64,000 nucleotides of DNA, taken from IMG/VR virus record IMGVR_UViG_3300027744_000013, positions 44,087-108,086 of that record; one strand, 5' to 3'. A program made the position numbers and the translations under genes. The notes beneath the pieces were generated by a model, which was given only the letters and a program-made list of their open reading frames with translations, had not been told where the DNA came from and did not search any database. This DNA is from a virus. Positions 22,393 to 55,239 of this stretch are shown piece by piece (within the stretch, counting starts at the first letter, position 1; each line of letters starts with the position of its first letter).

Positions 22393-22570
22393 AAAAAAAA
22401 GCCCCAACAACCGGGAGCGAATCGGATTTATATTGGGGCTTCAAGAACCCTTGCCGTTTGGACTTGGATTCTTCCTACTGACTGCTTGCCGGGAGCGAAT
22501 CGTTGGGCAGTCTACTACACGTACAGCTAGCACTCTACGGCGCTATGCTGTACCCGCATACATGCTAGCC
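22393..22570 (-). ncRNA. Candidate structured sRNA / 3'UTR with two anti-RBS loops, ending in an intrinsic terminator
   Basis: Four hairpins, two loops AUUCGCUCC, terminal stem AAGCCCCAA/UUGGGGCUU plus U8. Confidence 0.6.
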
Positions 22571-22571
22571 C

Positions 22572-23444
22572 TTAGGCGTTGCGCATACACGTTACTTCTA
22601 CCACAGCCCGCCACTTGGCAGGCATACTTACTCGGATGTCCGCTACCTTGAGCACCATACGCAGGCTCAGCTCACGCATACGATCAGCGTTGGCATTGAC
22701 AAACTCCACGCACTCGGCCTTGGCTTCATCAGTCAAATCGTATGCATCCAACATGCCCGCATCACGTACTACCTGTTTGATACGCAACAGCTTCTCACGT
22801 TGTGTGTCAATGGTCAAGTCCAAGTAGTGACAGCGTGACTCTAATGCTTCAAGGTGATCGCGTAGCTTCTTGCTACGCACGTGATCGAACTTGATGTTGG
22901 TAATGAAGATCGCACCACCCTTGAACTCGAATGAGTTAGGCATGCCTTCTTGCTGTAAGCTACGGCTGTCCGTGTTCCAGCAAATCATACGCTTCTTGCC
23001 CGAATCCAGTGCGGCTTTGAGAATGTTCAAGCTCAAGTCATCTAACAGTACTGAGTCACAGTCATCGAACACCAATATGGATTTCTTGTCTGAGAACTCG
23101 TACAGCTTCTTGTACAGGCCAATGGCACTCATAGCGCCTTTGACCACTTCGTACTTCTTCAGCTTTGAGTCATTGGCTACATCAGCGAACACATCGTGCT
23201 TGCTCAGTACCTTCTCTACACCAAAGCTCTTGCCCACGCCTGGAGGGCCTGTAACGATCATTGATCTAACATCGCCCTTTTTCACTGCACGGGTCATGTC
23301 TTCCAGGATCTCAAAGCGATCAGCCAAACGTTGCATGATCTCTTCATCTGTTTCTGTTAGTACTTTGTTCACGGGCTCTTGTGCCAATGATTTGGATTCT
23401 GCTGTGTCTTTAGCTAGACTCAATGCTGTATGTACCTTTGCCAT
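22572..23444 (-). CDS. AAA-family P-loop ATPase
   Basis: GPPGVGKS, LVFDDCD, FITN, ALESR. Confidence 0.85.
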   Translation of the reverse strand: MAKVHTALSLAKDTAESKSLAQEPVNKVLTETDEEIMQRLADRFEILEDMTRAVKKGDVRSMIVTGPPGVGKSFGVEKVLSKHDVFADVANDSKLKKYEVVKGAMSAIGLYKKLYEFSDKKSILVFDDCDSVLLDDLSLNILKAALDSGKKRMICWNTDSRSLQQEGMPNSFEFKGGAIFITNIKFDHVRSKKLRDHLEALESRCHYLDLTIDTQREKLLRIKQVVRDAGMLDAYDLTDEAKAECVEFVNANADRMRELSLRMVLKVADIRVSMPAKWRAVVEVTCMRNA

Positions 23445-23523
23445 CTATCGCTCCTTTGTTACGCTGTTAAAGAATTAATTATATAGTCAAGGGCACTGAT
23501 AGTCAATGCCCTTTGGTATGCAA

Positions 23524-23850
23524 TTAGTCCAATCTGCTACCACTGTATGCATTCAAACCCAATGCACGGAGGTACTCTGCGTAGGCATCTGCACCCGCTT
23601 CTTTGATGTCTATGTTCTGCACGGGCAGGTTGCCTGGGTTCCACATGCTAAGGCATTTGGGTTTGTAGTCCTTCTTGAACCCTGCGGCAATCAGCTCTTT
23701 GGCCTGCGCAGAGTTGGTGCGATCAACGAACACGTCTACCCAAGCAAAGCCACATGCGAATGCATCCTTACGGCCCATCTTGTCGTACATGGCAATGCTT
23801 GCCTGTTCTGCTAGTGTCTTACCGCTACGGATCTGTTCTGCTGTAATCAT
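23524..23850 (-). CDS. Early hypothetical protein (CGFAWV motif)
   Basis: Own promoter and GGAGCGAA RBS. Confidence 0.75.
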   Translation of the reverse strand: MITAEQIRSGKTLAEQASIAMYDKMGRKDAFACGFAWVDVFVDRTNSAQAKELIAAGFKKDYKPKCLSMWNPGNLPVQNIDIKEAGADAYAEYLRALGLNAYSGSRLD

Positions 23851-23893
23851 AAGTTTCGCTCCTTATTTGTTTGTGTAAGTGTATATTATACGA

Positions 23894-24181
23894 TCAAGCC
23901 AGCTCTTTGTCAACCACGGTTAACATGTTAGCAGGCACTCTCCAGAGGCCCTGACCGGTGTTGACTGTTACATATTTAATGGCAATCTTGGTAACGAAGC
24001 CACGTGTGAGTCGTCCGGTCTTGCCGGACGTGAACTCCACGTTATCGCCAACTGACATGCTACGTTTGATCTGTTTGGCTAGGTTAGCCCTGTTCCATTT
24101 GACCGCATCGATCATGCTACGAAGTTCGATGTCTGTCCAAGTGCCCAACATGATTGCGGTGTTGACTTGTTTGATATCCAT
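23894..24181 (-). CDS. Early hypothetical protein, SH3-like C-terminus
   Basis: Own promoter/RBS; VGDNVEF..G.V....WRV. Confidence 0.7.
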   Translation of the reverse strand: MDIKQVNTAIMLGTWTDIELRSMIDAVKWNRANLAKQIKRSMSVGDNVEFTSGKTGRLTRGFVTKIAIKYVTVNTGQGLWRVPANMLTVVDKELA

Positions 24182-24216
24182 TAAGTTCGCTCCTTATTGT
24201 TTAAGTAGTTATTATA

Positions 24217-24360
24217 TTACCAAAGCGTGGGGTTGTCAACCAGCTTCTTCCTGTTGTGAGCAATGATGCCTTCTTCAATGAACAGGGCCACGGCTAGGAT
24301 CGCCAGGAAGATCCACAAGGGCATGGTGTAGTAGAATGCGTAGAGGATAGCGTCGATCAT
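24217..24360 (-). CDS. 47-aa membrane peptide
   Basis: MIDAILYAF..LVDNPTLW; coupled to upstream ORF; not in the ORF track. Confidence 0.55.
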   Translation of the reverse strand: MIDAILYAFYYTMPLWIFLAILAVALFIEEGIIAHNRKKLVDNPTLW

Positions 24361-24554
24361 TGTGCGAACACCTCTTTGCTTAGGATTTCGTCTTCAACGA
24401 TCTGGTTGCAGGCGTTGAGTGTCAATTGCATGATTTGGTATGCTGTGGCCTTGGCCTCTACTGGCATGCACTCGATGTAGTCCTGAATCTCCGCTAGTGT
24501 GCGGGTTGCAAACAGACCGCTACAGGGAATTGGGTTATTGATGATATTGTACAT
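24357..24554 (-). CDS. Early hypothetical protein
   Basis: Own promoter/RBS. Confidence 0.7.
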   Translation of the reverse strand: MYNIINNPIPCSGLFATRTLAEIQDYIECMPVEAKATAYQIMQLTLNACNQIVEDEILSKEVFAQ

Positions 24555-24610
24555 TAGGTTCGCTCCTTAGTGTGTTTAAGTGTTTATTATACTGCCTTTT
24601 GGGCAGGGCG

Positions 24611-24772
24611 TCAACCTTGCAGATAGCAAGAATGTATAGTGCATCTGGACCCGTACTGGGCTTGGATCATAGCCTTGGCCCTGAAGTCATCGAATGCTGT
24701 GACCTGCGTGGTCACCCACTGTAGGCTACTGTCCGCACCTTCAACGCTGAATGTCACTTCGAATAGTCTCAT
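24611..24772 (-). CDS. 53-aa hypothetical protein
   Basis: MRLFEVTF..; TAATG coupling; not in the ORF track. Confidence 0.55.
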   Translation of the reverse strand: MRLFEVTFSVEGADSSLQWVTTQVTAFDDFRAKAMIQAQYGSRCTIHSCYLQG

Positions 24773-25038
24773 TACATGCTCCAATAGAGTTCGCTGGATG
24801 GGTCACATGAGCGCGGTGTATCATGTGGAATCTGTATGTCCTTGCCACTCATCAAGTTCTTCACAGTCTTCATTGTGGGGAACGCTTCTGCTCTAAAGCC
24901 CTGACCGCTGACTTCCTTGCACTCGCGAGCCATGCTGGCCTCATCTCTGTCTTGCCAAACTGTAGTTGATACAAGACGTTCACCGGTCTTCTTACGACGG
25001 TCCGTCTTGTAGATGTACATGGTGTAATCTTGTTTCAT
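24772..25038 (-). CDS. Early hypothetical protein
   Basis: Own promoter/RBS; ends CDPSSELYWSM. Confidence 0.7.
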   Translation of the reverse strand: MKQDYTMYIYKTDRRKKTGERLVSTTVWQDRDEASMARECKEVSGQGFRAEAFPTMKTVKNLMSGKDIQIPHDTPRSCDPSSELYWSM

Positions 25039-25082
25039 AAGTTTCGCTCCTTATTGTGTCTGTATGTTAGTATTATAAGGCC

Positions 25083-25787
25083 TTAAGCCACTTCTGTCAA
25101 TCGGATTACGAAGCCACTGTAGTCCTTCTTTGCACGACCTTTGGCCTTCAAACCAAGCATGATGCCCTTAGGGTCCAAAAAGCGCAAATCAGTTTCGTCT
25201 GCACTGGGTACGCCTGCGGGGATCTTGTCGTAGACCGCAACCACTGACATGCCTTGCAAGAGCGCATCTGCAACATCCGAATCATTGCCGTCAGCCTTGC
25301 TGAAGGTCAAGTGGTAGTTGGCTAGGTGCTTGACCTTACGACCCAGGACCTTGGTGTAGTCGTAGAACTGAACAAAGGAGAAGTATTCAAAGATGTTCTG
25401 TCCTGTGCTGGCTACCTTGTACTTCTCCCAGCTCAAGTCTGACGTGCCGTTTAAACGAAACACTGGAGTCAAGCCCTTGCGTTCTGCGAACTTGATGGCC
25501 TTAGTGATGTCGTTAACCAAGTCCTGCATGAAGCCTTCACGGTTGTCAAAGAAGTATTGTGTCTTGCGGATGCGAGCCTTTTGGATCATGTTGGTGTTCT
25601 CACCCTTCTTGAACATGCCACCACGTCCTGCGGTGTTAAGGCATGCGGCAATGCAACCCTTTGTGGCCTTTGGGCAAGTGTTCTTGCCTGACAAGTCGCT
25701 GGGTGCAAGGTGCAGGATAAAGCTGAGATAGCCCATCTTAGTACCCTTTTGGATCTTAGGATTGGCAGTGCTGAGTAATTTAAACAT
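25083..25787 (-). CDS. Gp88-like protein with Cys-triad (radical-SAM-like) motif
   Basis: CPKATKGCIAACL, RLNGTSD, FYDYTK. Confidence 0.7.
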   Translation of the reverse strand: MFKLLSTANPKIQKGTKMGYLSFILHLAPSDLSGKNTCPKATKGCIAACLNTAGRGGMFKKGENTNMIQKARIRKTQYFFDNREGFMQDLVNDITKAIKFAERKGLTPVFRLNGTSDLSWEKYKVASTGQNIFEYFSFVQFYDYTKVLGRKVKHLANYHLTFSKADGNDSDVADALLQGMSVVAVYDKIPAGVPSADETDLRFLDPKGIMLGLKAKGRAKKDYSGFVIRLTEVA

Positions 25788-25853
25788 TGTTTTCGCTCCA
25801 GTGTTTGTTTGTATGTAAGTATTATAGCAGGATTGGGCCCACCTGTCAACCGA

Positions 25854-26084
25854 TCAATCCCAGCTTTTCTTGTCCCCAAACTGCTCATTGTACTGATAAC
25901 CCGCCAAGTAGGCCTGGATCTCTGTAGGCGTCATTTGGCTCTGATCAACGCGATCGCCGTTGTAAGTACCTTCTGGGTACATATGGGGATCACGTGGGCG
26001 ATGGTAGTAAGAGTCTGCTGATCCACGATCGAATGCACCACCGTGCTCTGTATTGTAGTTCTGTTTGGTTTCTAATGTGATCAT
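25854..26084 (-). CDS. Early hypothetical protein
   Basis: SD AAGGAG; HGGAFDRGSADSYY. Confidence 0.7.
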   Translation of the reverse strand: MITLETKQNYNTEHGGAFDRGSADSYYHRPRDPHMYPEGTYNGDRVDQSQMTPTEIQAYLAGYQYNEQFGDKKSWD

Positions 26085-26284
26085 ACAGTCTCCTTGACAA
26101 TCAATTTGCTTAATGGGCCAATCAGTTCTAACTCCTTGGGGTTGTACCATGCAACCTTCTGCATAGAACCCTCTGGAATAACTAGGCTAACATCGCCATG
26201 GTCGTTTACTTCAGCAACCACAGCCAGTGTACCGAACTTGGTCCAGACAGCGTCTAGTACCTTAAGGGGCTTCTTCTTGCTCAT
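26081..26284 (-). CDS. Early hypothetical protein
   Basis: SD AAGGAG, ATGA coupling. Confidence 0.65.
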   Translation of the reverse strand: MSKKKPLKVLDAVWTKFGTLAVVAEVNDHGDVSLVIPEGSMQKVAWYNPKELELIGPLSKLIVKETV

Positions 26285-26658
26285 ACAGTCTCCTTAATGA
26301 AATAACGATATGGGAGGCCTAACAAGAAGCAAAGGTACTCGTCGTCACCATTGCTACCCTCTGCCTCATGGACCCAACGCAGGGCCATCTCACGGTCCTT
26401 AGCACCCGTCTGTAGGAGACCCAGCATACGCATTTCGAAGTCATGCTTGGCTACTTCTTCACGGGCCAATTGCTCTGTATAGTTCTCATCGATGGTCTTG
26501 GCCAGGCTAACGAACTCAGCTTCGAACTGGGCTTCAGTCCACTCTGTAGTGTCGATACCGCGTGGGCGAACGCCATAGGCATCCTTGTACATATCCCAGA
26601 ACTGGCAAGCATATTGCTCTACGGTACTCATCTCTTCCCAGCTTTTGAATTCATTCAT
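26281..26658 (-). CDS. Early hypothetical protein (YKDAYGVRPR)
   Basis: Own promoter/RBS; start MNEFKSW. Confidence 0.7.
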   Translation of the reverse strand: MNEFKSWEEMSTVEQYACQFWDMYKDAYGVRPRGIDTTEWTEAQFEAEFVSLAKTIDENYTEQLAREEVAKHDFEMRMLGLLQTGAKDREMALRWVHEAEGSNGDDEYLCFLLGLPYRYFIKETV

Positions 26659-26820
26659 CTTATGCTCCTTTGTGTGTCTGTATGCTAGTATTATAGCAAA
26701 GCCAGCCCAAAGTGTCAACCACGAGAGTGTTGTATTAATACAACAGGCACCGACCCCGTCCACCCCCCTCTGTTCGACTATGCTAGTATACGATCGGGTG
26801 GGGTTTCTGTCAACCAAAGA

Positions 26821-26895
26821 TGGTCCGGCGTAACGGAATCGAACCGCTATTTAGGGAGTAGAAATCCCCTGTATTATCCATTATACGAACGCCAG
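26821..26895 (-). tRNA. tRNA-Arg(TCT)
   Basis: Acceptor CTGGCGT/ACGCCGG, anticodon stem GGGGA/TCCCT with loop TTTCTAC, GGTTCGATTCC, encoded CCA. Confidence 0.88.
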
Positions 26896-26896
26896 A

Positions 26897-26975
26897 TGGT
26901 AGGCCCTCCCAGAGTCGAACTGGGCACCAATGGATTATGAGTCCACTGCTCTAACCAAGCATGAGCTAAGGGCCT
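26897..26975 (-). tRNA. tRNA with CAT anticodon (Ile2-like or Met)
   Basis: Acceptor AGGCCCT/AGGGCCT, loop CTCATAA, T-loop TTCGACT, CCA; resembles bacterial tRNA-Ile2. Confidence 0.88.
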
Positions 26976-27168
26976 ATGATAATTTAATACGTTCTAACTC
27001 TATCAACTCGCCTTCTTCGTCTTCCTTGTAGATGACGTACTCAGTATGGTACTCATCAATGTTAGCGTCAGCGATTTGACGGGCTTCTTTTAGACTCTTT
27101 GTAGTATCAACGAGATCTTCATGGCCATCTGCATCAATGGACCAAACCTCATAGAGTTCCCAGTTCAT
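26974..27168 (-). CDS. Acidic hypothetical protein
   Basis: ORF in early array. Confidence 0.6.
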   Translation of the reverse strand: MNWELYEVWSIDADGHEDLVDTTKSLKEARQIADANIDEYHTEYVIYKEDEEGELIELERIKLS

Positions 27169-27343
27169 CTTTCGTGCTTTCGTAGTTTAGGAGGTCACAG
27201 AGCTTGATTGCTATCTGCTCTGCTTCGTGCTGGTTATCGCGAGCGATAACGCATAAGACGCGGCCTTTCGGGTGACTCTCGAAGTCTCGTATGACAACCT
27301 TGTTGTCTCCGTAATCGTCACTTAGAGAGCACCCGTACCGCAT
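27149..27343 (-). CDS. Hypothetical protein
   Basis: ORF in early array. Confidence 0.55.
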   Translation of the reverse strand: MRYGCSLSDDYGDNKVVIRDFESHPKGRVLCVIARDNQHEAEQIAIKLCDLLNYESTKDELGTL

Positions 27344-27346
27344 TAA

Positions 27347-27715
27347 TTAGAACGGAGCGTCTTCGTTCTCAACAACCTTAGCAGTCTTTGTCACGCCAGG
27401 GGCTTTGACAGCTTTGGTTGGTGCTTTGGCAACTGGTGCCTTGGCCTTAGGAGCAGCCTTAACCTTAGGAGCCTTTTCCTCAAGGTACTCTGCAATTGCT
27501 GATTGAGCAGCCGCATCACTAAAGTCTGCCATGGTGGCAATTTGTTTCACTGCTTCATACTTTGAAACAGGAGTATCCAACTCGCACAAGCGGATGTCTT
27601 CGTGTCCGTGTTTCGCAAGTACCTTGATACGCATGATATCAGTTGCGAAGCGAACCTTGTACTCGCCGCCGAGCTTTGATACACCAACGATGTTAAATGT
27701 TTTATCTGTAGCCAT
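27347..27715 (-). CDS. Protein with Lys/Ala/Pro histone-H1-like tail
   Basis: KAPKVKAAPKAKAPVAKAPTKAVKAP; SD GAGG. Confidence 0.7.
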   Translation of the reverse strand: MATDKTFNIVGVSKLGGEYKVRFATDIMRIKVLAKHGHEDIRLCELDTPVSKYEAVKQIATMADFSDAAAQSAIAEYLEEKAPKVKAAPKAKAPVAKAPTKAVKAPGVTKTAKVVENEDAPF

Positions 27716-27762
27716 TTGTAATACCTCTTCTGTGTGTGATTAAAATTAGTTAAAGAACTTCT

Positions 27763-28038
27763 CTAACTGTTATTATTATAGTGCCGTTTCGCCTTCTTGT
27801 CAACCATTTTGTTTGCCTTTTGGGCAACCATTTGGAACTCTTTTTGGATATAATGTGCAACCATCATGTTCTTAATCATAATGGTTAAATCGGACCCATG
27901 ATCATCTGGACAGATGAATCGGACAGGGCAAGTGCCCCATCCACCGTATTCTACGAACTCAAAGTACCAGCGCCTATGAGCTTTGTTAGCAGGATCAAAG
28001 GCTACCAGTGGACGGGCAAGATATTCTAGTCTACTCAC
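27763..28038 (-). CDS. Hypothetical protein
   Basis: ORF in early array, WGTCPVRF. Confidence 0.6.
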   Translation of the reverse strand: MSRLEYLARPLVAFDPANKAHRRWYFEFVEYGGWGTCPVRFICPDDHGSDLTIMIKNMMVAHYIQKEFQMVAQKANKMVDKKAKRHYNNNS

Positions 28039-28088
28039 GATCCCTTGCCCATTTTGCCATAATGGCTTCTAGTTGGTCCATTGCTTCT

Positions 28089-28724
28089 TTACTTGGTGTC
28101 ATTTTCTTGTTCCTGTTCGTTAGTTGCACTCAACCCGCCATCAAGATCGATGTCGATATTTTCCTCTTCGTATTCAGCCATGCACTCGCTGATGCCAAAC
28201 ATCTCGTCCAATTCTGACGGAACGTCTTCGGCTACCTGTGTGCTAGACATGCCGCCCAGCTCATAGAAGTCATCACCGTTCTCATCATAGATACCAGCAA
28301 AGCACATGCCCGGCTCATAGTAATACAGTCGAACTGAGAAGCCCAAGTCCATGAACTTGTCCATGGCCGCTGTGGGGGGTGCCCAGGCTGAATCAAAACT
28401 CATTGTAATCTTGTTAGGGCTGTCTTGCTGTGGTTCGTTATAGTCATCACCACCTACATCCCACTTGGTGCCCCACTCATTAACGCAGTAGTCATACCAT
28501 GTGGCATAACCATAGGTGCTGAGATTGTGCATGGTCTGCTCTTGCAGTTTGATCTGCTCGGGCTCTTCATCACTACCTACGCGGCCTGCTACAATCTGCA
28601 GAGCCTGTGGCACTGGACAGAACTCTGCCAGGAACCGGCCTTCAGCAAAGGCCTTCTTGGCCCGGGTAATCATTGCAGGGTCTTCGTGCTGGAGTTCCAG
28701 CGTGTTGTTGCACCAATTAGGCAT
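28089..28724 (-). CDS. DUF1281/YubB-like ferredoxin-fold protein
   Basis: MPNWCNN, WGTKWD, FDSAWAPP, YYEPGM. Confidence 0.75.
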   Translation of the reverse strand: MPNWCNNTLELQHEDPAMITRAKKAFAEGRFLAEFCPVPQALQIVAGRVGSDEEPEQIKLQEQTMHNLSTYGYATWYDYCVNEWGTKWDVGGDDYNEPQQDSPNKITMSFDSAWAPPTAAMDKFMDLGFSVRLYYYEPGMCFAGIYDENGDDFYELGGMSSTQVAEDVPSELDEMFGISECMAEYEEENIDIDLDGGLSATNEQEQENDTK

Positions 28725-28725
28725 A

Positions 28726-28869
28726 TTAGACTCCAGTGTGTAAAGGATTGCGTTTACGAAGGTGTGCCAAAGCGGCCTCTTTGCTGTCAAAGCGACCCGA
28801 GATGGGCGTTTGATGGCTACCACGCACAATGAACCAACCTGCTAACAGGCTATTGAAGATGACTTTCAT
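28726..28869 (-). CDS. 47-aa hypothetical protein
   Basis: SD GGAG; MKVIFNSLL..; not in the ORF track. Confidence 0.55.
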   Translation of the reverse strand: MKVIFNSLLAGWFIVRGSHQTPISGRFDSKEAALAHLRKRNPLHTGV

Positions 28870-28870
28870 C

Positions 28871-29137
28871 TTAGACTCCCATTTCGTAAAAGGTTACTGA
28901 AGGATCAATGCTGAGCAGTTCTTCTGCACAACGGCTAAGGAACTTAACTCTGCGGCTTACTTCTGCACGGGGCAGTTCGCCATCGCATGTTAGGTTCTCT
29001 GGGCTCATGTCGCTGTCAATGCGATCTGCAATCTTTTGACGATCAGCGGCGTTGAGCAGGCTGAGTGGCTTGTTGCCAAACAAGGCACCCCATCGATTGA
29101 TACCATCTACATACTGTTCTATGGTTGCTATGTTCAT
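28871..29137 (-). CDS. Early hypothetical protein (SPENLTCDGE)
   Basis: Own promoter/RBS. Confidence 0.7.
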   Translation of the reverse strand: MNIATIEQYVDGINRWGALFGNKPLSLLNAADRQKIADRIDSDMSPENLTCDGELPRAEVSRRVKFLSRCAEELLSIDPSVTFYEMGV

Positions 29138-29200
29138 AAGTTTCGCTCCTTATCTGTTTGTGTAAGTGTATATTATACTGCCAACTACCCAACTTGTCAA

Positions 29201-29508
29201 TAGTAAAGAGGAACCATTGTGCATCTGTCTCTACCCTATGCAACGTCTACATAGGGCCTGCACGGTCATTACTACTAGATTGTCCACCGCAAGTCCGGAT
29301 CCACATGGCCTAAGCCATTGATCCTGTTTCATGCTCCTGGACTTGACCAACCCCCGTCGGTATTGTCATCATCCCAGTCGCCTAGTGGTCTAGTTAACCT
29401 CAATTTGGGAGGCCGAGTCTACAAACTCGCTTCGTATCCCTTGGTTCCAACCCTTTTTGCATTTCTGCGTGGGTTCTTACATTCGAGGATCGCCTTTATC
29501 TTTTACTT
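29201..29508 (-). ncRNA. Candidate ~300-nt highly structured ncRNA
   Basis: Own promoter (29515-29543), no credible ORF, at least 9 nested helices. Confidence 0.6.
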
Positions 29509-29531
29509 GTTTCTATTATAGTCTCTTTCGC

Positions 29532-29792
29532 CTACTTCGTCAATCGGAACTTGTCAATAACCCTTTTTGCTTCAAGGTTATCAGGAAGCATACCATCTTC
29601 GGCCATGCCCTTACGATAAGTCTCAACCAGTTCCATCTTCATCATCTCTACAATGCTCTCGCACTCGGCCTTTTCCCGCTTGGGCAAGGTAGCAATGAAT
29701 CGTTCTGCATCACTCCACTCTTCAATGCTCCACAGAATGTCTGCTAGAACCTTTTGGCGGGCATTGAGGCCCTCTAATGTGATCTCAACCAT
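29532..29792 (-). CDS. Hypothetical protein
   Basis: SD AAGGA. Confidence 0.65.
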   Translation of the reverse strand: MVEITLEGLNARQKVLADILWSIEEWSDAERFIATLPKREKAECESIVEMMKMELVETYRKGMAEDGMLPDNLEAKRVIDKFRLTK

Positions 29793-29931
29793 TGTCGCGT
29801 CCTTTGTGTTTGGGGTTGCGTTTAAATTTTACCTTGCTCTGCACAACCTTCTGCTTGAAGGGTGTGTCCTTGCAGAACAGGACAATGTGTGCCCTGACCT
29901 GCTTGGGTAGTTTGATTGTAATCTTCATCAT
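29785..29931 (-). CDS. Small basic hypothetical protein
   Basis: Own promoter, SD AGGAG; ends KRNPKHKG. Confidence 0.6.
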   Translation of the reverse strand: MMKITIKLPKQVRAHIVLFCKDTPFKQKVVQSKVKFKRNPKHKGRDNG

Positions 29932-30010
29932 GTGCTCCTGTCTGTATAAATGTATTATACAACCAAAAGCCCAAAGCGTCAACCGCTAAACAGCGGGGCC
30001 TGGTCTAGTG

Positions 30011-30205
30011 TTAGGCTCCGTAGTAGTCGGGCGACTCGGTGTCCTGTGGCGTTTCCGCAACATCTTCACGGGCCACCCCAAAGTCATCCAGTACATCGTA
30101 GACATACTCAATTGGGATCAACAGCTCTGCGGCAATAGCCTTTGCACCGTAGCCCTCAATGAATAGGGTCTCTACATCGTAATACATATCTTTGACTGCA
30201 CCCAT
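30011..30205 (-). CDS. Small protein, possible HTH
   Basis: GAKAIAAELLIPIEYV. Confidence 0.6.
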   Translation of the reverse strand: MGAVKDMYYDVETLFIEGYGAKAIAAELLIPIEYVYDVLDDFGVAREDVAETPQDTESPDYYGA

Positions 30206-30435
30206 TATGCGTTCTCCATCTCTTTGCGTTGTTCAACTTCTGCTACCAACTCCTCGTCTGAGAAGTTACCGTAGCCCTTAAATCCATCTTCCAGGTATGT
30301 CCAAAGCAGTTCTAGACCCCCGTCGTCTGTAGACATTATATAGTCAAAGTCGCTTTGGGTCAAGTAGTCAACGGCTGTTTCTCTATCGAATAGCTTGTCT
30401 TTCGCACTCGCCTTTTTGCTTTGGAATCCAGTCAT
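30205..30435 (-). CDS. Acidic hypothetical protein
   Basis: TAATG coupling. Confidence 0.6.
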   Translation of the reverse strand: MTGFQSKKASAKDKLFDRETAVDYLTQSDFDYIMSTDDGGLELLWTYLEDGFKGYGNFSDEELVAEVEQRKEMENA

Positions 30436-30902
30436 TATGCGTACTCCCCTTCTGTGAGGAACGCTTCTTCAAGCGTCACATAGTTGTCGCTGTGGTCTGC
30501 TACAAACCAAACAGCCTTGCCGTTGACGTTGCGCAGGATGTACTCAAATTCTTCGTACTGGTGATTGGCAACATAGTCTGCATAGTCTTTGAACTTCTTA
30601 GCAGGGCACTTCTCGTTGCGATCACGTCCGTAGAATGTACACATATTCTCTACCAGTGCTTCGTGTGCATCGCGTTCCTCTTTGGTTTCCAATTGGAATG
30701 AGCTAAACGGATGTTGGACGCCAATGGTAGGGCGCAGGCTAGACAAGTCACCCAAGTCAATCAGCCTGCGCAGTTTGAACGGGTCACTGTAATGTTCAGC
30801 AAGGATCTTGCCGTTGTTGCTCAAGTAACCGTCCCAGTGGCAGTATACCTGCTCTACTGTACCGTCTGCGTATTCAAGTGCGATTGTTGAACGTGTTCCC
30901 AT
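30435..30902 (-). CDS. Conserved-looking phage early protein (YCHWDGY)
   Basis: Own promoter; MGTRSTI..YCHWDGY. Confidence 0.75.
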   Translation of the reverse strand: MGTRSTIALEYADGTVEQVYCHWDGYLSNNGKILAEHYSDPFKLRRLIDLGDLSSLRPTIGVQHPFSSFQLETKEERDAHEALVENMCTFYGRDRNEKCPAKKFKDYADYVANHQYEEFEYILRNVNGKAVWFVADHSDNYVTLEEAFLTEGEYA

Positions 30903-30958
30903 TTTAGCTCCTAGTGTGTTTGTGTATGTGTATATTATAGCGCCTTTTGGGCACCCAG

Positions 30959-31171
30959 TCAATCAGCCCAGCATTCCGTGGCCAAGCGTGTGGTTATTGT
31001 TTCACCACCAATGTAGTCACCTGAGAAGCCATGCTTGTTCTCCAGCACAAGAGCCACGCCAGCATAAGTCTTCTTGATCTCTATGATCTTGGCCCATTGC
31101 TCGATGTCGCTCTTGAAGGCCACGTTGTCGCCTACCTTAACTTCTACATCATGTACCATGCAAGTCTTCAT
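30959..31171 (-). CDS. Early hypothetical protein
   Basis: Own promoter/RBS. Confidence 0.7.
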   Translation of the reverse strand: MKTCMVHDVEVKVGDNVAFKSDIEQWAKIIEIKKTYAGVALVLENKHGFSGDYIGGETITTRLATECWAD

Positions 31172-31236
31172 AGTTCGCTCCTAGTGTGTTTGTGTATGTG
31201 TTAATTATAACAGGGAACCCAGTCCCTGTCAACCAA

Positions 31237-31434
31237 TTAGCGATTGGCAAACTCGCAGTCGGCACCCTCGGGACCAACCTTGACTTCGTCGTACCAGGTA
31301 ATCTCATACCCAAAGTCCTCGCCCTCCAAGACTGCGATACGAGCCAGGGCCAGCTTGGCAGTGGGATACACTCCGTAGATCATGCTCTCAGGAGCGCCAC
31401 GGTATTCAGCACGAACAATAAAAATAGAAGTCAT
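31237..31434 (-). CDS. Early hypothetical protein
   Basis: Own promoter, SD AAGGA. Confidence 0.65.
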   Translation of the reverse strand: MTSIFIVRAEYRGAPESMIYGVYPTAKLALARIAVLEGEDFGYEITWYDEVKVGPEGADCEFANR

Positions 31435-31475
31435 TTTGTTTCCTTAGTGTGTTGCGATGTGTGTATTATAACGTC

Positions 31476-31724
31476 TCAAGCCCACTCTGTCAACTGGACG
31501 TCAGCAATAACCCTACTGCCTGTATGGGTAAGGAATACCTTAGTGCTGTCAGAACCGCCCTTGCACAGGAAGACTGCCATGTAGCAGAACTGCCCACCGT
31601 TGGTGATGCCCAGGAACTTGCATGAGCTGAACGCAGGGCCCTTGTAGCCCGCATCCTTGGCCGCCCGGGTTAGGGCTGGTGCTGAGAAGCTGATAAGGGT
31701 CTTAAGTGTGTCAGGTGTGATCAT
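31476..31724 (-). CDS. Hypothetical protein
   Basis: ATGA coupling. Confidence 0.6.
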   Translation of the reverse strand: MITPDTLKTLISFSAPALTRAAKDAGYKGPAFSSCKFLGITNGGQFCYMAVFLCKGGSDSTKVFLTHTGSRVIADVQLTEWA

Positions 31725-31969
31725 GCCAGCACCACTACCTTTCTAACGTCTGTACGCAAGTCGCCAGTCTCTTTATCAAACTGGTCCTCGTACTCCCCTA
31801 CCATCTTGTCCATGCGGTGGTACTCACTGTACTCCACTACACCCTCGTCAACCCTATCAATCTTAGGGGCTACTTCTGTGCGCCAGTGGTCGCCGTAGCA
31901 GTAGCTGAAGTGGACCTCTGCGTCCTGATCCATATACTTGAGGGATTCGATAAGTTCTTTGACTAGCAT
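31721..31969 (-). CDS. Early hypothetical protein
   Basis: Own promoter/RBS. Confidence 0.7.
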   Translation of the reverse strand: MLVKELIESLKYMDQDAEVHFSYCYGDHWRTEVAPKIDRVDEGVVEYSEYHRMDKMVGEYEDQFDKETGDLRTDVRKVVVLA

Positions 31970-32019
31970 AGTTTCGCTCCTATTGCGTTGTTGATGTATG
32001 TATTATAACGCCTTTTGGG

Positions 32020-32286
32020 TTAGGCGTCAACCGCTTCTTTAAAATAGACAACTTTGATTGTGCCTTTTGCACGATCTTCTACGAACACGTATTCTGCACT
32101 TTCGTTAAAATTAGCACGTGGATCGCTTAGGACCTTCTTAGTCATAATCTTAACACTGCGCACACTAACAGAACCCTGCCAGTCTTCGTGGGCCACGTTT
32201 TCGTTGTAGCTGTATTTGCCGAGGCATCCGCACATACAACCGATCTTGCCCGAATATACTTTGGCCACTTTGCTGATGTCTAACAT
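32020..32286 (-). CDS. Early protein with GCMCGC motif
   Basis: Own promoter/RBS; start MLDISK. Confidence 0.7.
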   Translation of the reverse strand: MLDISKVAKVYSGKIGCMCGCLGKYSYNENVAHEDWQGSVSVRSVKIMTKKVLSDPRANFNESAEYVFVEDRAKGTIKVVYFKEAVDA

Positions 32287-32381
32287 AGTTTCGCTCCTAA
32301 TGTTTGTTTGTATGTGTGTATTATAGCACTGTTTGGGCAAAGCGTCAACCGCGTTAAAAAAAGCCCCTAAGGGCTGTAGGG

Positions 32382-32543
32382 TTATGCTACTGCTTTATAA
32401 ACTATTACAGTAGTGTCCGCAAAATCTGCGTGTGCATTGTAAAATGCTTGTGCTCGTGCAATAGCGTCTTCTGCGCTAGTTGCTGTTACTACGCACAAAT
32501 CTTCTATGTTGTCGTAACGCAAATAAACTGTGTATTTCTGCAT
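32382..32543 (-). CDS. 53-aa hypothetical protein
   Basis: Own promoter, SD AAGGA; MQKYTVYL..; not in the ORF track. Confidence 0.6.
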   Translation of the reverse strand: MQKYTVYLRYDNIEDLCVVTATSAEDAIARAQAFYNAHADFADTTVIVYKAVA

Positions 32544-32647
32544 GGTGTTTCCTTTGTTGCTAAGTGTTAATTATAGCGCAAAGGGTCCAAAACGTCAACA
32601 GCTTTGTGCAAAGACCCTGATGTCAACCAGGTCTTTTTTTAGGCCGT

Positions 32648-32674
32648 AAAAAAACCCTACGTAGTGTAGGGTTT
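32648..32674 (-). terminator. Intrinsic terminator
   Basis: AAACCCTAC/GTAGGGTTT plus U7; related stems at 32364, 32613 and 34324. Confidence 0.75.
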
Positions 32675-32678
32675 CTTA

Positions 32679-32891
32679 TTATGCTCCGACTTTTGCAAGA
32701 ACTTCTGTTACATGTTCTACCAACTGCCAGACGGGTCGTTTCTGCGTATCGGTATAGCGGATAGCTGGCTTGCCGTTTTTAAAGTCATTGTTGATCTCTT
32801 CAACGATAACAATAATAGCGGGACTACTGCCAAACCCTTCGCGTACTTTTACGATGGAGCCGACTTCTATTTGGTCTACTGTTACATACAT
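32679..32891 (-). CDS. Hypothetical protein (SH3-like)
   Basis: SD AAGGAGG. Confidence 0.65.
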   Translation of the reverse strand: MYVTVDQIEVGSIVKVREGFGSSPAIIVIVEEINNDFKNGKPAIRYTDTQKRPVWQLVEHVTEVLAKVGA

Positions 32892-32922
32892 GATAGCACC
32901 CTCCTTAGTATAGTCTTATTTA

Positions 32923-33132
32923 TTAATAAAAAAGGCCTAGTACATATAGAGCGAGCAGTACTCCGTTAACAATAATTAAATTAGTTTCCTTAATGCGCAC
33001 AGCCCAAATCAAGTACAGTAGGGCCCCCGCATTTAGAAAGTATATGTTAAGGGGGTCTATGCGCAGGCTAGTAAACAGGGCCCCTGCTAGCACTGTAGCG
33101 CACCCTGCCCATTTTAGTATGTTGTTTAACAT
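32923..33132 (-). CDS. Small membrane protein (about 3 TM segments)
   Basis: Hydrophobic; TAATG coupling. Confidence 0.7.
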   Translation of the reverse strand: MLNNILKWAGCATVLAGALFTSLRIDPLNIYFLNAGALLYLIWAVRIKETNLIIVNGVLLALYVLGLFY

Positions 33133-33509
33133 TACAGTTCCATGCTCGCATAGCCGTCGTCTTGCATACCCTGCTCTGTAAACATAACGTCTGTACCTAG
33201 CAGTGTGCTAATCGCATCTACAAAACCGCTGTCTGTGTACAGTCTCCAGCTGTCCTCGTACTCCGCATCGCCGTTAACCGTGTAGCACACTGCAATGTGT
33301 ATGCTACTGTCGCCGTCCAATTCGTCCCACCATGTCTCGTGTATGTGTATGCTTGTAACTGTAACTGCCTCAATCTCGCAGTCCCATATACTGTCACCTG
33401 CAAGTTGCACCTCTACGTTGCAGTCGTATGTTGTACTAATACTGTCTGTGTTAGTCTCTGTACTTGCCAGTGTCAGCTTGTTGCTAACTTCAAATTGTGT
33501 TGCTTGCAT
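33132..33509 (-). CDS. Acidic early protein (YTDSGF..TEQGMQ)
   Basis: Own promoter/RBS. Confidence 0.7.
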   Translation of the reverse strand: MQATQFEVSNKLTLASTETNTDSISTTYDCNVEVQLAGDSIWDCEIEAVTVTSIHIHETWWDELDGDSSIHIAVCYTVNGDAEYEDSWRLYTDSGFVDAISTLLGTDVMFTEQGMQDDGYASMEL

Positions 33510-33549
33510 AGTTTTCGCTCCTAATGCTTGTTAAAAATTAATTATACAC

Positions 33550-33705
33550 TCAATCTACGTAATAGTCAACCGCTTCTGTTAGCTTGTGCAAAGCACCCTC
33601 TAACTCAGCAAAGCACCCCATCTCTGCTAGTTGCTCGCCGTCCAGCGTTGCCTCTAACAGCATGTCTTCTACTTCTGCTAGCTTTGCAAGTATCTCGTCT
33701 CTCAT
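33550..33705 (-). CDS. 51-aa acidic helical protein
   Basis: SD AAGGAG; MRDEILAKL..; not in the ORF track. Confidence 0.6.
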   Translation of the reverse strand: MRDEILAKLAEVEDMLLEATLDGEQLAEMGCFAELEGALHKLTEAVDYYVD

Positions 33706-33706
33706 T

Positions 33707-33925
33707 TTACGCTCCTTCTGTGTAAGTATAACCCACTTCGCCTGCTAGTGCGCAGTCCATCCACTCCTCAAAGCAGTCCTCTGCGTACTCCTCTTCCCAA
33801 ATTAGTATTTCGTCACAGCTAGCAATCTCCTTGCCGCGTTGTAGCGTTACCTTTACAGTACTACCGCTAGCATATTCGCTAGTGTAATAGCCTGCCGCTT
33901 CTATGTTTACTACTTTTACTTTCAT
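33707..33925 (-). CDS. Early acidic protein
   Basis: Own promoter/RBS. Confidence 0.65.
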   Translation of the reverse strand: MKVKVVNIEAAGYYTSEYASGSTVKVTLQRGKEIASCDEILIWEEEYAEDCFEEWMDCALAGEVGYTYTEGA

Positions 33926-34002
33926 TTCGCTCCTTTGTTGCTAAGTGTTAATTATAGCGCATTTAGCCAAAACTGTCAAATGCGCTATAAAGACCCTACA
34001 GT

Positions 34003-34257
34003 TTACTCTACAAATTCTACGCTGTTTGTGCGTAGTTGTGCGTAAACGCTAGGCAATACAGTACTTAATTCTTGTGCTAAGTTTTCTGCAAGTAAGTCGC
34101 CGCTAACATAAGCGCATTTTGCTTGTGTAGGAAATGCATACTTTACTATGCCTGCTGTAGTAATTGTTTTGTGTGCGTTAAACGCCACAACTAGTTTGTA
34201 AGATTTAAGTTTTTTGTTAAAAACTAACTTGGCTTTTGCAACACAATTTGTAAGCAT
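34003..34257 (-). CDS. Early hypothetical protein
   Basis: Own promoter, SD AAGGA. Confidence 0.65.
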   Translation of the reverse strand: MLTNCVAKAKLVFNKKLKSYKLVVAFNAHKTITTAGIVKYAFPTQAKCAYVSGDLLAENLAQELSTVLPSVYAQLRTNSVEFVE

Positions 34258-34355
34258 TTGGTTTCCTTTTTGTTTAAGTGTTAATTATACTGCACTTAGC
34301 CCAAAGTGTCAAGCCAAAAAAGAATAACCCTGGAGCCAGCAGGGTTATCCATGGT

Positions 34356-34676
34356 TCACAAGTACTGGTCGTTCAAGCTGGGCACTTGTTCCTTAACCAG
34401 TGCTCGTTCGTATGCATAGGCTTCCTTGCGTCCGCGTATGATTGCGAGAACCCGGTGTTCCCAAGCCCAATCCATAGCACCCATCTTCAAGTACTCGTAC
34501 AGGACCCAAGCCCTGTTTTCGTTACGGGCACGGCTGATATGCTTGCGCCACCGTTCCTTAACCACCTTGTTGACATTGGCCAGGCTCTTGCGTGTTAGGC
34601 CAATGTAGTTCTCGCCGTGCTCATCCGTCATTTCGTATATGATGTAGTTGCAGTCTACTCGGGTTTTACGTCTCAT
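34356..34676 (-). CDS. GIY-YIG nuclease-domain protein
   Basis: IIYEMT....NYIGLT..RWRKH..E...LN; first gene of the early array. Confidence 0.7.
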   Translation of the reverse strand: MRRKTRVDCNYIIYEMTDEHGENYIGLTRKSLANVNKVVKERWRKHISRARNENRAWVLYEYLKMGAMDWAWEHRVLAIIRGRKEAYAYERALVKEQVPSLNDQYL

Positions 34677-34777
34677 GGTTCGCTCCAATCTCTCAGTATC
34701 TTATTATAACATTTGGAACCCAAAGTGTCAACCGCCAAAAATACCCACACTCAGCCCAGGGTCTCTCTAAAAGCCGT

Positions 34778-34806
34778 TTGACAGGAAGGCCAAAAGACAG
34801 TATAAT
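34778..34806 (+). promoter_or_regulatory. Consensus sigma70 promoter, divergent from the early array
   Basis: TTGACA-17-TATAAT with no credible ORF downstream. Confidence 0.8.
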
Positions 34807-34990
34807 ATACACATGTTCGAACTTAGAGGGGGTGGACGTGGAGAGCGGGCGAAAGGTTCTCTGTTAGTAAGCGCCAACTAACTTAGGCGGCTGTGGCGAA
34901 AAAACAACGACCTGGTTGACAAAAGGGTTATACAAAAATCCGGTTGACAAAACGGATTTGGACGGAGCGCCTCCGGCCCCTAAACGCCGT

Positions 34991-35206
34991 TTACTTTGGA
35001 ATGGATCCTGGCACACAGGGCTGACGTGCAATAAACTTAATAGCATCCTCTTGACTCTCAAATACACCATAATCACATGCGGTATCACTATACTTGAATA
35101 TATGCACATGCTGACTAGCTATACAGTAGCTGATATGTATATAGTAGTCACGATCACTAACTCTGACATGTGCCAGTGTGACCATATTGTTCTTAGATAT
35201 ATCCAT
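34991..35206 (-). CDS. Hypothetical protein
   Basis: TAAATA 4 nt before second ATG. Confidence 0.55.
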   Translation of the reverse strand: MDISKNNMVTLAHVRVSDRDYYIHISYCIASQHVHIFKYSDTACDYGVFESQEDAIKFIARQPCVPGSIPK

Positions 35207-53887: not shown

Positions 53888-54565
53888 ATGAAAATATCCG
53901 AATTACTTAACGAAGACTGGAACAAGGTCAACAAGAAAGACAAGACAGATGGTCTAAGTCAAAAAGCTGTCAATGCTTATCGCAGAGAGAATCCAGGCAG
54001 CAAATTAAAAACTGCTGTTACTACCAAACCTAGTAAATTAAAAGCTGGTAGTAAAGCAGCCAAGCGCCGCAAGAGTTTTTGTGCTAGGATGGGCGGCAAC
54101 AAAGGTCCTATGAAAAAGCCTAATGGTAAGCCTACTCCTAAAGCGTTGGCCTTACGCCGCTGGAACTGTGAAAGCATTGAACAAATGCAAGAGTTAATCA
54201 TGTTAGGCGAAACACACATTGCAGAATTGAAACAGAGACTGGATCCCAAATGCTGGAAGGGTAAACATAAAGAAGGCACCAAGATCAAAGGCGGTGTTCG
54301 TGTTAATAACTGTGTACCTAACGAAAGTGTATCGGAAAGCGAAAAAAAACGCTGTCTACAATGTGGTATGACTAACTGTAGCTGTAAACCAGGTACCTGT
54401 AAATGTAAACCTATTGCTGGTTGGGTTCCGGGCAAAGGATTTAAGAAAGCAATAGATGAAGCCGCCCTAGAAGAAAAATGGACACAGAAGTATAAGAGCT
54501 CAATCAACTGTGCTAGCCCTAAGGGATTCTCTCAAAAGGCGCATTGTGCAGGTAAGAAAAAATGA
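53888..54565 (+). CDS. Modular basic/Cys-rich putative head-packaged polyprotein
   Basis: MKISELLNE; RRKSFCARM, CWKG, INC..PKGFSQKAHC modules. Confidence 0.65.
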   Translation: MKISELLNEDWNKVNKKDKTDGLSQKAVNAYRRENPGSKLKTAVTTKPSKLKAGSKAAKRRKSFCARMGGNKGPMKKPNGKPTPKALALRRWNCESIEQMQELIMLGETHIAELKQRLDPKCWKGKHKEGTKIKGGVRVNNCVPNESVSESEKKRCLQCGMTNCSCKPGTCKCKPIAGWVPGKGFKKAIDEAALEEKWTQKYKSSINCASPKGFSQKAHCAGKKK

Positions 54566-55239
54566 GAGCTAGTGATTTTGAAATCAGCAACTATTCTAAG
54601 TTAGATGCAATATTATCTAAACTCTGTGACCTAGTTGAAAAAGGACAATCCAGTAATAAAGATTATGGTATGGTTGCGTCTGCTGTGTTAGATCCCAATA
54701 ACAAATTAGTTGCTAGATTAAATCGTCCTGCTAGCAACGGAAAAAGAATTCATGCAGAACGTGCTGCCATGGAAGCATATGAGAAACAACATGGTTCAAT
54801 TCCAAGCGGCAGTATTATAATCACTACACTGAGTCCTTGTGATCAAACACATACGGATGAGCGTTATGGTGAAAGTTGTACCAATGTTGTGAATCAATCT
54901 AATGTAAAGAAAGTCTACTGTGGATATATAGATCCTACAGAAAAAGAAGATGATGACGCAAGACAATTTACTCTGTTAGAAACAACAGATTCATCATTAC
55001 GAGATAAGTGTAAGAAATTTGCCAGTACATTTTTAGATAATGTAACTGAAAGCATAACACCTAACACTATACACAAATTGGCAGACCGTAAGGGCGTTAA
55101 ATGGGATAATGAACCCAGTTTCCTTCGTCTTACCAAACGATTAACGGGCAAAGAGCACTTGGATGACTTAGACCAATCAGAGTTACAACAAGTTAAAAAA
55201 CATTTAGAGAAACAAAGTGTGACTGAAGGCTTGAAATAA
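54562..55239 (+). CDS. Cytidine-deaminase-fold protein
   Basis: HAE..TLSPC..C. Confidence 0.75.
   Translation: MRASDFEISNYSKLDAILSKLCDLVEKGQSSNKDYGMVASAVLDPNNKLVARLNRPASNGKRIHAERAAMEAYEKQHGSIPSGSIIITTLSPCDQTHTDERYGESCTNVVNQSNVKKVYCGYIDPTEKEDDDARQFTLLETTDSSLRDKCKKFASTFLDNVTESITPNTIHKLADRKGVKWDNEPSFLRLTKRLTGKEHLDDLDQSELQQVKKHLEKQSVTEGLK

Follow-up and report, generated by a model that had tools for sequence, protein, structure and literature searches.

An island without TC or CC on the message strand

The stretch analysed here is a window of 64,000 nucleotides (nt) of viral DNA (positions 44,087 to 108,086 of the IMG/VR record IMGVR_UViG_3300027744_000013), and its minus strand carries a run of 913 nt in which the dinucleotides TC and CC do not occur at all. 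All coordinates are positions of this window; the minus strand is referred to as the message strand, Y stands for T or C and R for A or G, and YC denotes TC or CC on the message strand, i.e., GR (GA or GG) on the plus (template) strand. The YC-free island covers three complete genes, coding for proteins of 72, 51, and 125 amino acids (aa), together with two promoters and the first 52 nt of a fourth gene (Table 1).

The original prediction, made by reading the letters of this DNA, had placed the absence of GA and GG between 33081 and 33991 of the plus strand, in spite of roughly 150 G. A recount, which might have returned normal GA and GG numbers, gave zero for both (A 194, C 259, G 157, T 301), while the opposite orientation is still present in 134 copies on the same strand (76 TC and 58 CC). 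The exact GA/GG-free run is 33080-33992; considered one at a time, GA is missing from 33037-33992 (956 nt) and from 32276-32613 (338 nt, predicted as 32277-32612), and GG from 33080-34052 (973 nt). No longer GA/GG-free run exists in the entire 108,086-bp record, where the runner-up measures 164 nt and coincides with the neighbouring 53-aa gene, whose whole cassette (32276-32613) lacks TC. The other single dinucleotides are never absent for more than 318 nt in this record, and no pair of dinucleotides is comparable either. At the message-strand density of the remaining early region (8.6 YC per 100 nt), 78.6 YC would be expected in 911 nt, against 0 observed (Poisson P(0) = 7.5e-35). The codon count and the reading of the promoters also agreed with what had been predicted for the genes: the three complete ones have 0 proline codons, 0 TCN serine codons and 16 AGY serine codons, and two promoters lie in the stretch. 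Literature searches retrieved no report of such dinucleotide-free islands.

Table 1 Features of the YC-free island and its surroundings (window coordinates; ORF, open reading frame)
Feature	Position	Strand	Remarks
Main island	33080..33992	-	913 nt without TC/CC on the message strand; three genes and the first 52 nt of a fourth
84-aa cassette	34003..34312	-	directly upstream of the island; promoter 34312-34284
Promoter of the 72-aa/51-aa unit	33979-33951	-	TTGACA-17-TATAAT, sigma-70 type; sequence reading
72-aa gene	33707..33925	-	acidic early protein; 0 YC
51-aa gene	33550..33705	-	acidic helical early protein; 0 YC (homologues 0-2)
Promoter of the 125-aa unit	33569-33541	-	TTGACT-17-TATAAT; overlaps the end of the 51-aa ORF
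125-aa core gene	33132..33509	-	0 YC
69-aa gene	32923..33132	-	membrane protein, weak DUF6552 match; TAATG translational coupling to the 125-aa gene; first 52 nt YC-free, rest normal (TC 3, CC 10)
70-aa gene	32679..32891	-	normal YC (19: TC 10, CC 9); last of the unit before the terminator
Terminator after the 70-aa gene	32652-32674		
Promoter of the 53-aa cassette	32598-32570	-	
Second YC-free block	32381..32544	-	53-aa gene (32382-32543)
Terminator of the 53-aa cassette	32375-32362	-	

The depletion is a product of selection

Synonymous resampling of the four YC-free genes was performed with two sets of codon frequencies, 5000 draws each. With the codon usage of the genome, 34.3 ± 5.1 YC were expected and the minimum was 16; with that of the other early genes, 55.2 ± 6.3 were expected and the minimum was 32. 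The observed number is 0 in either case. Since resampling never reached zero, the depletion is not a by-product of protein composition, and the amino-acid-preserving shuffle that had been proposed as a possible refutation thus failed to reproduce it. The composition of the proteins is itself bent to the YC rule. Moreover, among five copies of the 125-aa gene 65 nucleotide sites are variable and 0 of these differences create a YC, an outcome that about 25% of all possible single changes would have.

The nucleotide and codon composition of the island was compared with that of the other early genes. On the message strand T amounts to 21.2% (22.3% in the other early genes), and G (28%) exceeds C (17%). 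The remaining C is concentrated in AC and GC, with observed/expected ratios of 1.58 and 1.66, and C-ending codons are favoured even more than elsewhere (GAC 22 : GAT 5, AAC 6 : 1, CAC 5 : 0), while ATC codons are replaced by ATA and ATT. Leucine (7.3 vs. 7.4%) and phenylalanine (2.3 vs. 3.9%) show no increase in the island proteins, the ORFs are intact and conserved, and the proteins are under strong purifying selection. We conclude that the ban on YC is a product of selection and not of mutagenesis.

Conservation of the ban across relatives

In all 15 of the 15 close relatives (125-aa protein 79-92% identical), the coding strand contains a YC-free run of 326-1288 nt with sharp edges. A profile search with the 125-aa family led to 80 further loci. 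Homologues in stand-alone cassettes, down to ~36% identity and in phages with a guanine-plus-cytosine (GC) content of 38-52%, have 0-1.7 YC per 100 nt, compared with 8-11 per 100 nt in their flanks, and their YC-free runs extend over 343-1357 nt. Altogether, the ban holds in about 55 distinct loci, i.e., the 15 close ones and roughly 40 distant stand-alone loci from IMG/VR.

In the family tree, the stand-alone YC-free versions make up one side of a well-supported split, the other side being formed by 17 low-GC loci with normal YC content. In the low-GC homologues the 125-aa domain is internal to acidic proteins of 222-619 aa, no sigma-70 cassette is present, and conserved prolines are retained (HDGPW, NP, PGG) that are gone in the YC-free clade. 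As a natural control, the marine-like low-GC loci do not offer a clean comparison, because their proteins are larger and come without the early cassette. The photosystem gene psbA was not found in five partial low-GC records, which says nothing firm on the host.

The ban is a property of cassettes. In 11 more loci, none of which has a homologue of the 125-aa gene inside 3 kb, members of the 72-aa family are likewise YC-free, with 0-1 YC and islands of 160-1244 nt, and the gene content of the islands is mosaic among loci. The relative G001, a record of 353,123 bp that is 98% complete, contains exactly one island (922 nt), and the next run in it of any class made of one base plus a purine or pyrimidine is no longer than 206 nt. 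The DNA of the 125-aa gene is 92% identical between the window (33132-33546) and G001 (315334-315749), while the core genes of the two are only 65-75% identical, which points to either a recent exchange of the cassette or an unusually strong constraint on silent sites.

Cultured jumbo phages were scanned as well. No YC-free run above chance is present in Phosso, XaC1, Vibrio 2.275.O, and E. coli vB_Ec-M-J (hosts Sinorhizobium, Xanthomonas, Vibrio, and E. coli, respectively), and the first 50 kb of PA5oct (1-50 kb, its early region) contain no such island. Given its absence from these five, the ban is lineage-restricted.

Limits of the YC-free zones, leaders, and hairpins

Zones that contain a single cassette start 8-140 nt upstream of the -35 box, often right behind the stem of the upstream terminator, and end inside their own terminator stem, 15-35 nt past the stop codon. 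Where a co-transcribed gene follows without a terminator, the zone extends 52-170 nt into that gene, and the first 52-86 nt of such downstream ORFs are YC-poor. The ban hence follows cassettes, from behind the upstream terminator to their own terminator.

Both promoters of the island are perfect or near-perfect examples of TTGACx-17-TATAAT, and their leader with the ribosome-binding site (RBS; AGGAGCGAA) is common to other early cassettes. Hairpins within the longer islands are also made of YC-free sequence, for instance the 10-bp inverted repeat TAGCGCATTT...AAATGCGCTA around the -35 box, in which the 33979-33951 promoter is embedded. Several early promoters (33951-33985 on the minus strand, and those of loci L003, L073, and L082) lie inside perfect inverted repeats of 8-10 bp that bracket the -35 box and the spacer; outside islands, the promoter repeats have GGGG/CCCC or AGACCC/GGGTCT arms and double as terminators.

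The leaders of early cassettes are AC-rich. Leaders (+1 to +25) of the 39 non-island early cassettes in G000 (the genome of the window; 22500-34800, minus strand) and G001 (310-338 kb; loci L035-L036) have 1.7 YC per 100 nt vs. ~9 elsewhere. YC-poverty is therefore general to the untranslated 5' ends in this phage group, and in the island it spreads over entire units.

A second, weaker depletion in the adjacent cassette

In both G000 and G001, no region is as poor in the four steps GA, GG, TC, and CC as the cassette immediately upstream of the island. In the 84-aa ORF (255 nt), the message strand contains 5 GA, 3 GG, 2 TC, and 3 CC, while synonymous resampling predicts 10.6, 7.9, 10.9, and 11.0, respectively. 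Aspartate, glutamate, and glycine together account for 8.3% of the protein vs. 21.7% in other early proteins. Within the 84-aa family GA is depleted in 4/4 homologues tested (P <= 0.005) and GG in 2/4. The genes of the island differ in this respect, with 33, 19, and 19 GA observed in the 125-, 72-, and 51-aa genes vs. 30.4, 20.7, and 17.4 expected, and GG also at the expected level.

Neighbouring genes and genome context

The original prediction had described the gene at 32679-32891 as normal and suggested that it is a newer insert between the YC-free blocks. Its normality was confirmed (Table 1), and an insertion is plausible: in locus L014 the 51-aa and 53-aa genes are direct neighbours, which results in a YC-free run of 1288 nt, whereas in the window two normal genes stand between them. 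The insert cannot be called recent: in L001, too, the 125-aa gene is followed by the 69-aa gene (85% identity).

The island sits in an 11-kb leftward early region with ~22 co-oriented promoter cassettes, and G001 has 27 comparable leftward promoters over 310-337 kb. Only a few of these 22-46 equally strong, co-oriented cassettes display the ban. An ORF of the GIY-YIG type (homing-endonuclease-like; 34356-34688, minus strand) is located between a divergent promoter pair (34731/34778) and the first low-YC cassette, and looks like a mobile insert because its dinucleotide content is normal. Genes for tRNA-Arg(TCT) and tRNA-Met(CAT) are found within the early region as well (26821-26975, minus strand).

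The SSB, UvsX, DnaB, and primase of this phage resemble the versions of jumbo phages (PA5oct, Atu_ph07, Rak2-like). The completeness of the IMG/VR record was estimated at 29% (CheckV), and in this 29%-complete record neither terminal repeats at the ends nor an informative skew were found. Two contigs from different metagenomes (L002:1 and L005:1, 41 kb and 188 kb) stop at the identical base, which lies within the island and 155 nt upstream of the 125-aa gene. The shared end may reflect a break in the assembly or a real end of the DNA.

Freshwater and lake metagenomes from 15 studies contain matching DNA, as do six metatranscriptome runs. The early region was recovered in metatranscriptome contigs of four RNA runs, which carry no information on strand, transcript ends, or level and for which DNA carry-over is possible. 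Among cultured phages, megablast and blastn detected no DNA similarity to 32000-35000, and neither the 125-aa protein nor a low-GC homologue had a tblastn match.

A host search based on the class I/II aminotransferase of the phage returned matches only in contigs of metagenome-assembled genomes (MAGs) from unrelated phyla. Four of these contigs, L119 (PBPT01000016.1, 335 kb), L118, L120, and L121, carry copies that are 67-73% identical, and their source MAGs are assigned to Neomarinimicrobiota, Crocinitomicaceae, Vibrio, and Flavobacteriales. In all likelihood, the four contigs belong to jumbo phages and were mis-binned with bacteria.

The 125-aa core protein

The 125-aa family comprises 1338 clusters at 90% identity in metagenomes. 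An earlier AlphaFold2 attempt from 19 close sequences was poor (predicted local distance difference test, pLDDT, 58.8), while a diverse alignment gave a model with a pLDDT of 95.4 and a predicted template modelling score (pTM) of 0.89. The modelled fold is a four-stranded antiparallel sheet with two helices and a C-terminal strand. The C-terminal motif reads W.IYTD.GF..AIS..LG..V.FTEQGMQ.DG.ASME, in which the FTEQGMQ.DG.ASME part is nearly invariant. No significant match was obtained among solved structures (best E = 0.38 with Foldseek against the PDB, best Z = 5.5 with VIA-align); the model resembles only unnamed viral models (BFVD M1HTR4, template modelling score, TM, 0.70), and the ESM Atlas offered only unnamed viral clusters with scores <0.8.

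In the low-GC lineage, the domain is found inside very acidic proteins of 222-619 aa (L075:4212-5732, L077:4377-5753, L098:4242-5717, L103:4365-6224, and others), which have repeated L(K/R)xL(A/S)G(I/M) motifs and Cys-rich stretches. Pfam gave no match for ten large proteins with the 125-aa domain. These may be processed virion proteins. Should this be the case, one might speculate that the domain is delivered at time zero in both lineages, in one by injection and in the other by an immediate-early gene that is stealth-coded, i.e., purged of YC.

What reads YC?

Because only one strand is affected, a reader of double-stranded DNA as such is ruled out: YC must be read on a single strand, or the effect must depend on the direction of transcription. 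Some factor in the infected cell reads exactly the TC and CC steps, and the pattern is most likely best described as the elimination of target sites against a reader of YC. Evasion of a sequence-specific reader of single-stranded RNA or DNA, one of three options put forward originally, is supported as a class by the ~55 loci, by the cassette-wise extent of the ban and by the lack of any YC-creating substitution. That escape is the purpose, that RNA is the molecule read, and that the reader is an enzyme are three further steps which we infer.

The mechanism that we favour would run as follows. A factor in the infected cell would act on single-stranded nucleic acid at individual YC sites, and a few very early genes would have to be expressed while it is active. 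Selection has purged every 5'-YC-3' from the message strand of these cassettes, throughout promoter, leader, coding sequence, and internal hairpins, at the cost of all proline and all TCN serine codons, and they would thus offer no target. The molecule read would be mRNA and the reader a host defence enzyme that recognises a dinucleotide in single-stranded RNA and modifies or cuts the RNA there, and the island genes would probably serve counter-defence or take-over. By analogy with CmdT, which acts at GA, we assign a probability of about one in three to the reader being a host defence enzyme that modifies or cuts single-stranded mRNA at YC. More broadly, the chances appear evenly divided that an undescribed anti-phage activity of uncultured freshwater bacteria reads YC (and sometimes GR) on single-stranded RNA or DNA, and that stealth-coded counter-defence genes are the answer to it, the 125-aa protein being the antidote that is made first.

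An mRNA-level reader is favoured because the zero is absolute, with 79 YC expected by density and 34-55 by resampling. An enzyme specific for YC would explain the site-by-site strictness and the restriction to a few genes, as well as the GA/GG depletion next door and the absence of islands from cultured jumbo phages of other hosts. The loss of conserved prolines in the YC-free clade implies that protein sequence was sacrificed to the rule, and the mosaic islands, together with a 125-aa gene that is 92% identical in otherwise 65-75% identical genomes, are signs of an arms race. The leaders, which are naked RNA, are the most YC-protected part in all cassettes, and this was counted in favour of reading at the RNA level.

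Several points weigh against such an enzyme. We know of no bacterial enzyme with YC specificity on RNA, and none was found in literature searches. Pfam, PHROGs, and NCBIfam gave no informative family for the island proteins and their neighbours. The zone begins 8-140 nt ahead of the -35 box and takes in the promoter, DNA that the cassette's own transcript does not contain; a reader of RNA would account for this only through a role of read-through transcripts, and otherwise the reading would have to take place on DNA. The hairpins of the island are YC-free too, though their stems should be shielded from an enzyme specific for single strands. Finally, the mRNA of the 125-aa gene runs on into two genes with normal YC, so that protection would have to be local to the ORF.

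A possible, if doubtful, alternative is that the sequence is read at the DNA level. Here, the G in 5'-GR-3' of the template strand would be altered, by a host enzyme such as a guanine ADP-ribosyltransferase or by a hypermodification of the phage itself, RNA polymerase would stall at the altered base, and genes in urgent need of transcription would carry no template GR, including in their promoter and ~50-100 bp of flank. The inclusion of promoter and upstream DNA and of hairpin stems in the ban, which is awkward for a reader of mRNA, would follow directly, and one reader acting on both strands would explain the four-step depletion of the 84-aa cassette. Where a downstream gene is co-transcribed, a zone that reaches at least 52 nt past the stop codon would presumably let the ribosome finish on the RNA of a stalled polymerase. 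Guanine ADP-ribosylation of DNA by DarT1 does exist, although this enzyme has no known sequence motif and acts on single-stranded DNA (PMC11543638). Searches with PF01702, PF00145, and PF01555 gave no match in G001 or G000, i.e., the 98%-complete G001 has no TGT/DpdA and no C5- or N6/N4-methyltransferase, novel enzyme families being outside the reach of these profiles; the sole deaminase-fold gene of the window's genome is also missing from G001. Known major-groove hypermodifications, such as that of T4, do not block RNA polymerase. A modification of the virion DNA would affect all 22-46 early cassettes, yet few are GR-free, and the general YC-poverty of leaders has no obvious reason at the DNA level.

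It is unlikely, on the present evidence, that the transcription terminator Rho is the reader. According to this explanation, messages without YC give Rho no primary site, and the cassettes would be transcribed to the end even at moments when their RNA is naked, for example ahead of the first ribosome or while a defence response impairs translation. Rho takes up 5'-YC dinucleotides in its primary RNA-binding clefts (PMC12360218; also PMC5314796, PMC6144790), and the banned set is exactly this ligand, UC and CC, with 0 occurrences over 913 nt. Rho also silences foreign DNA, and anti-Rho devices are known in other phages (lambda N and Q, P4 Psu, HK022 put; PMC12360218). The message has more G than C, and the YC-poor segments outside the island, namely the leaders of the 39 other early cassettes and the first 52-86 nt of coupled downstream ORFs, are windows in which Rho could load on naked RNA; the polarity, with a YC-free 5' part followed by normal downstream genes, fits as well. 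Nevertheless, Rho binding is cooperative and quantitative, and a strict zero that costs conserved prolines exceeds what would be needed. C in AC and GC contexts is increased rather than reduced, the strong RBSs should bring ribosomes that protect these genes, and the GA/GG depletion of the 84-aa cassette is left without explanation. Only a few of the 22-46 similar cassettes are affected, and the five cultured jumbo phages, which infect Rho-containing Proteobacteria, have no island. A Rho domain was not found in the phages, and the RNA-binding domain of Rho was also absent from a cyanobacterial control genome.

The two other options of the original prediction fared far worse. It is very improbable that the ban serves to keep the message unstructured and the Shine-Dalgarno sequence unmasked, RNA without UC and CC being unable to pair with a GA/GG-rich RBS such as AGGAGCGAA. 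Complements of GGAG necessarily contain UC or CC, and the leaders of all cassettes are AC-rich and YC-poor. On the other hand, the folding energy of leader plus ORF is weaker than that of YC-containing resamples by only z = 0.55-1.22, which is within the range of the other early genes, and a local need at the RBS cannot explain a ban of 400-1350 nt that includes terminator-distal codons and promoter DNA.

Least credible of all is strand-specific hypermutation, i.e., saturated C-to-T change at YC on the non-template strand, caused by ultraviolet (UV) damage with transcription-coupled repair or by an APOBEC-like deaminase. APOBEC-type deaminases preferentially act at YC, where UV (6-4) photoproducts also tend to form; the genes concerned are strongly transcribed, with the non-template strand being the one affected, and TT and CT are slightly up (observed/expected 1.26 and 1.30). 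TA and TG are up as much as TT, which follows from forbidding C after T without any C-to-T change. Saturating mutagenesis is contradicted by the composition described above, in which T, leucine, and phenylalanine are not raised, C is retained in AC and GC and NNC codons are preferred, and by proteins that are strongly conserved, with no decay of coding capacity. Neighbouring cassettes with identical promoters are unaffected, and the ban travels with the gene and not with the map position. A deaminase of the phage itself was considered as the cause and rejected, having no counterpart in the near-complete, island-bearing G001. The protein in question (225 aa, 54562-55239, plus strand) has a divergent cytidine/deoxycytidylate deaminase domain (PF00383, E = 2.4e-10) and ~100 extra residues; its best relative in the PDB is the RibD deaminase domain, and it has no NCBIfam match.

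Avoidance of protospacer adjacent motifs of CRISPR systems, primase sites, UV-proofing of the template strand, and McrBC-type avoidance were discarded, as each predicts an effect on both strands, on the other strand, or at RC instead of YC. The probability that the listed readings leave over belongs to readers we have not thought of.

Few signatures of selection on nucleic-acid sequence that can be seen by eye are as strong as a total, strand-specific ban on two dinucleotides. Its price is proline and most serine codons, and it has been kept across phages whose core genes differ by at least 30%. It tells us that a factor with a two-letter specificity decides over the expression of the first phage genes. 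If this reader is Rho, the islands would represent a new, cis-encoded escape from termination and provide a design rule for Rho-proof genes; if it is a new enzyme, they would be a bioinformatic beacon for this enzyme and for the counter-defence genes that it selects.

Comparison with known systems

Dinucleotide avoidance is familiar from eukaryotic viruses, where CpG is avoided in response to ZAP and UpA/UU in response to RNase L, and where APOBEC3 leaves footprints at TC. In these viruses, as would be the case here, a short motif read by a host sensor or enzyme is removed, with consequences that reach codon choice. Their avoidance is genome-wide and partial, whereas the ban described here is total and strand-specific, is limited to one island of ~0.4-1.3 kb per 350-kb genome, and rewrites proteins.

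Restriction sites are 4-8 bp long and mostly palindromic, and phages are known to avoid them and to have site-poor leading ends (e.g., T7). Their loss of target sites by selection, strongest in the DNA that acts first, is similar. In contrast to the symmetric avoidance of restriction sites on both strands, a single orientation of a 2-nt step is banned in the island, with 134 copies on the opposite strand.

Phage CAjan reportedly has a DpdA-type, motif-specific 7-deazaguanine at GA and GGC. It would thus mark G in the GA/GG-type contexts that are missing from the template strand of the island; unlike CAjan, the island-bearing, 98%-complete G001 has no TGT/DpdA homologue, and such a modification is not known to hinder transcription.

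With the Rho/rut system the island shares a forbidden set that equals the Rho ligand, an excess of G over C, and leaders that are the most depleted part, and escape from Rho is a known need of early phage transcription. Phages are known to counter Rho with trans-acting proteins or with RNA elements, which inhibit Rho or modify the polymerase; a coding sequence purged of the ligand is not among these devices, and neither the strictness of the ban nor its restriction to few genes and its absence from five cultured jumbo phages would be expected of an escape from Rho.

In the CmdTAC system, CmdT ADP-ribosylates the adenine in GA of single-stranded RNA and blocks translation, giving no product on a CC substrate (PMC11618068). 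Unlike what such an enzyme would select, the island genes keep GA and GG at the expected frequency and lack UC and CC instead. GA depletion beyond the demand of the protein, which would mark escape from a CmdT-type enzyme, was not seen in the 125-, 72-, and 51-aa genes and is confined to the neighbouring 84-aa family, where GA is depleted at synonymous sites in 4/4 homologues. The likeness to the reading favoured here lies in the principle: an anti-phage enzyme of the host recognises single-stranded mRNA by a dinucleotide, and mRNA without that dinucleotide is predicted to be immune.

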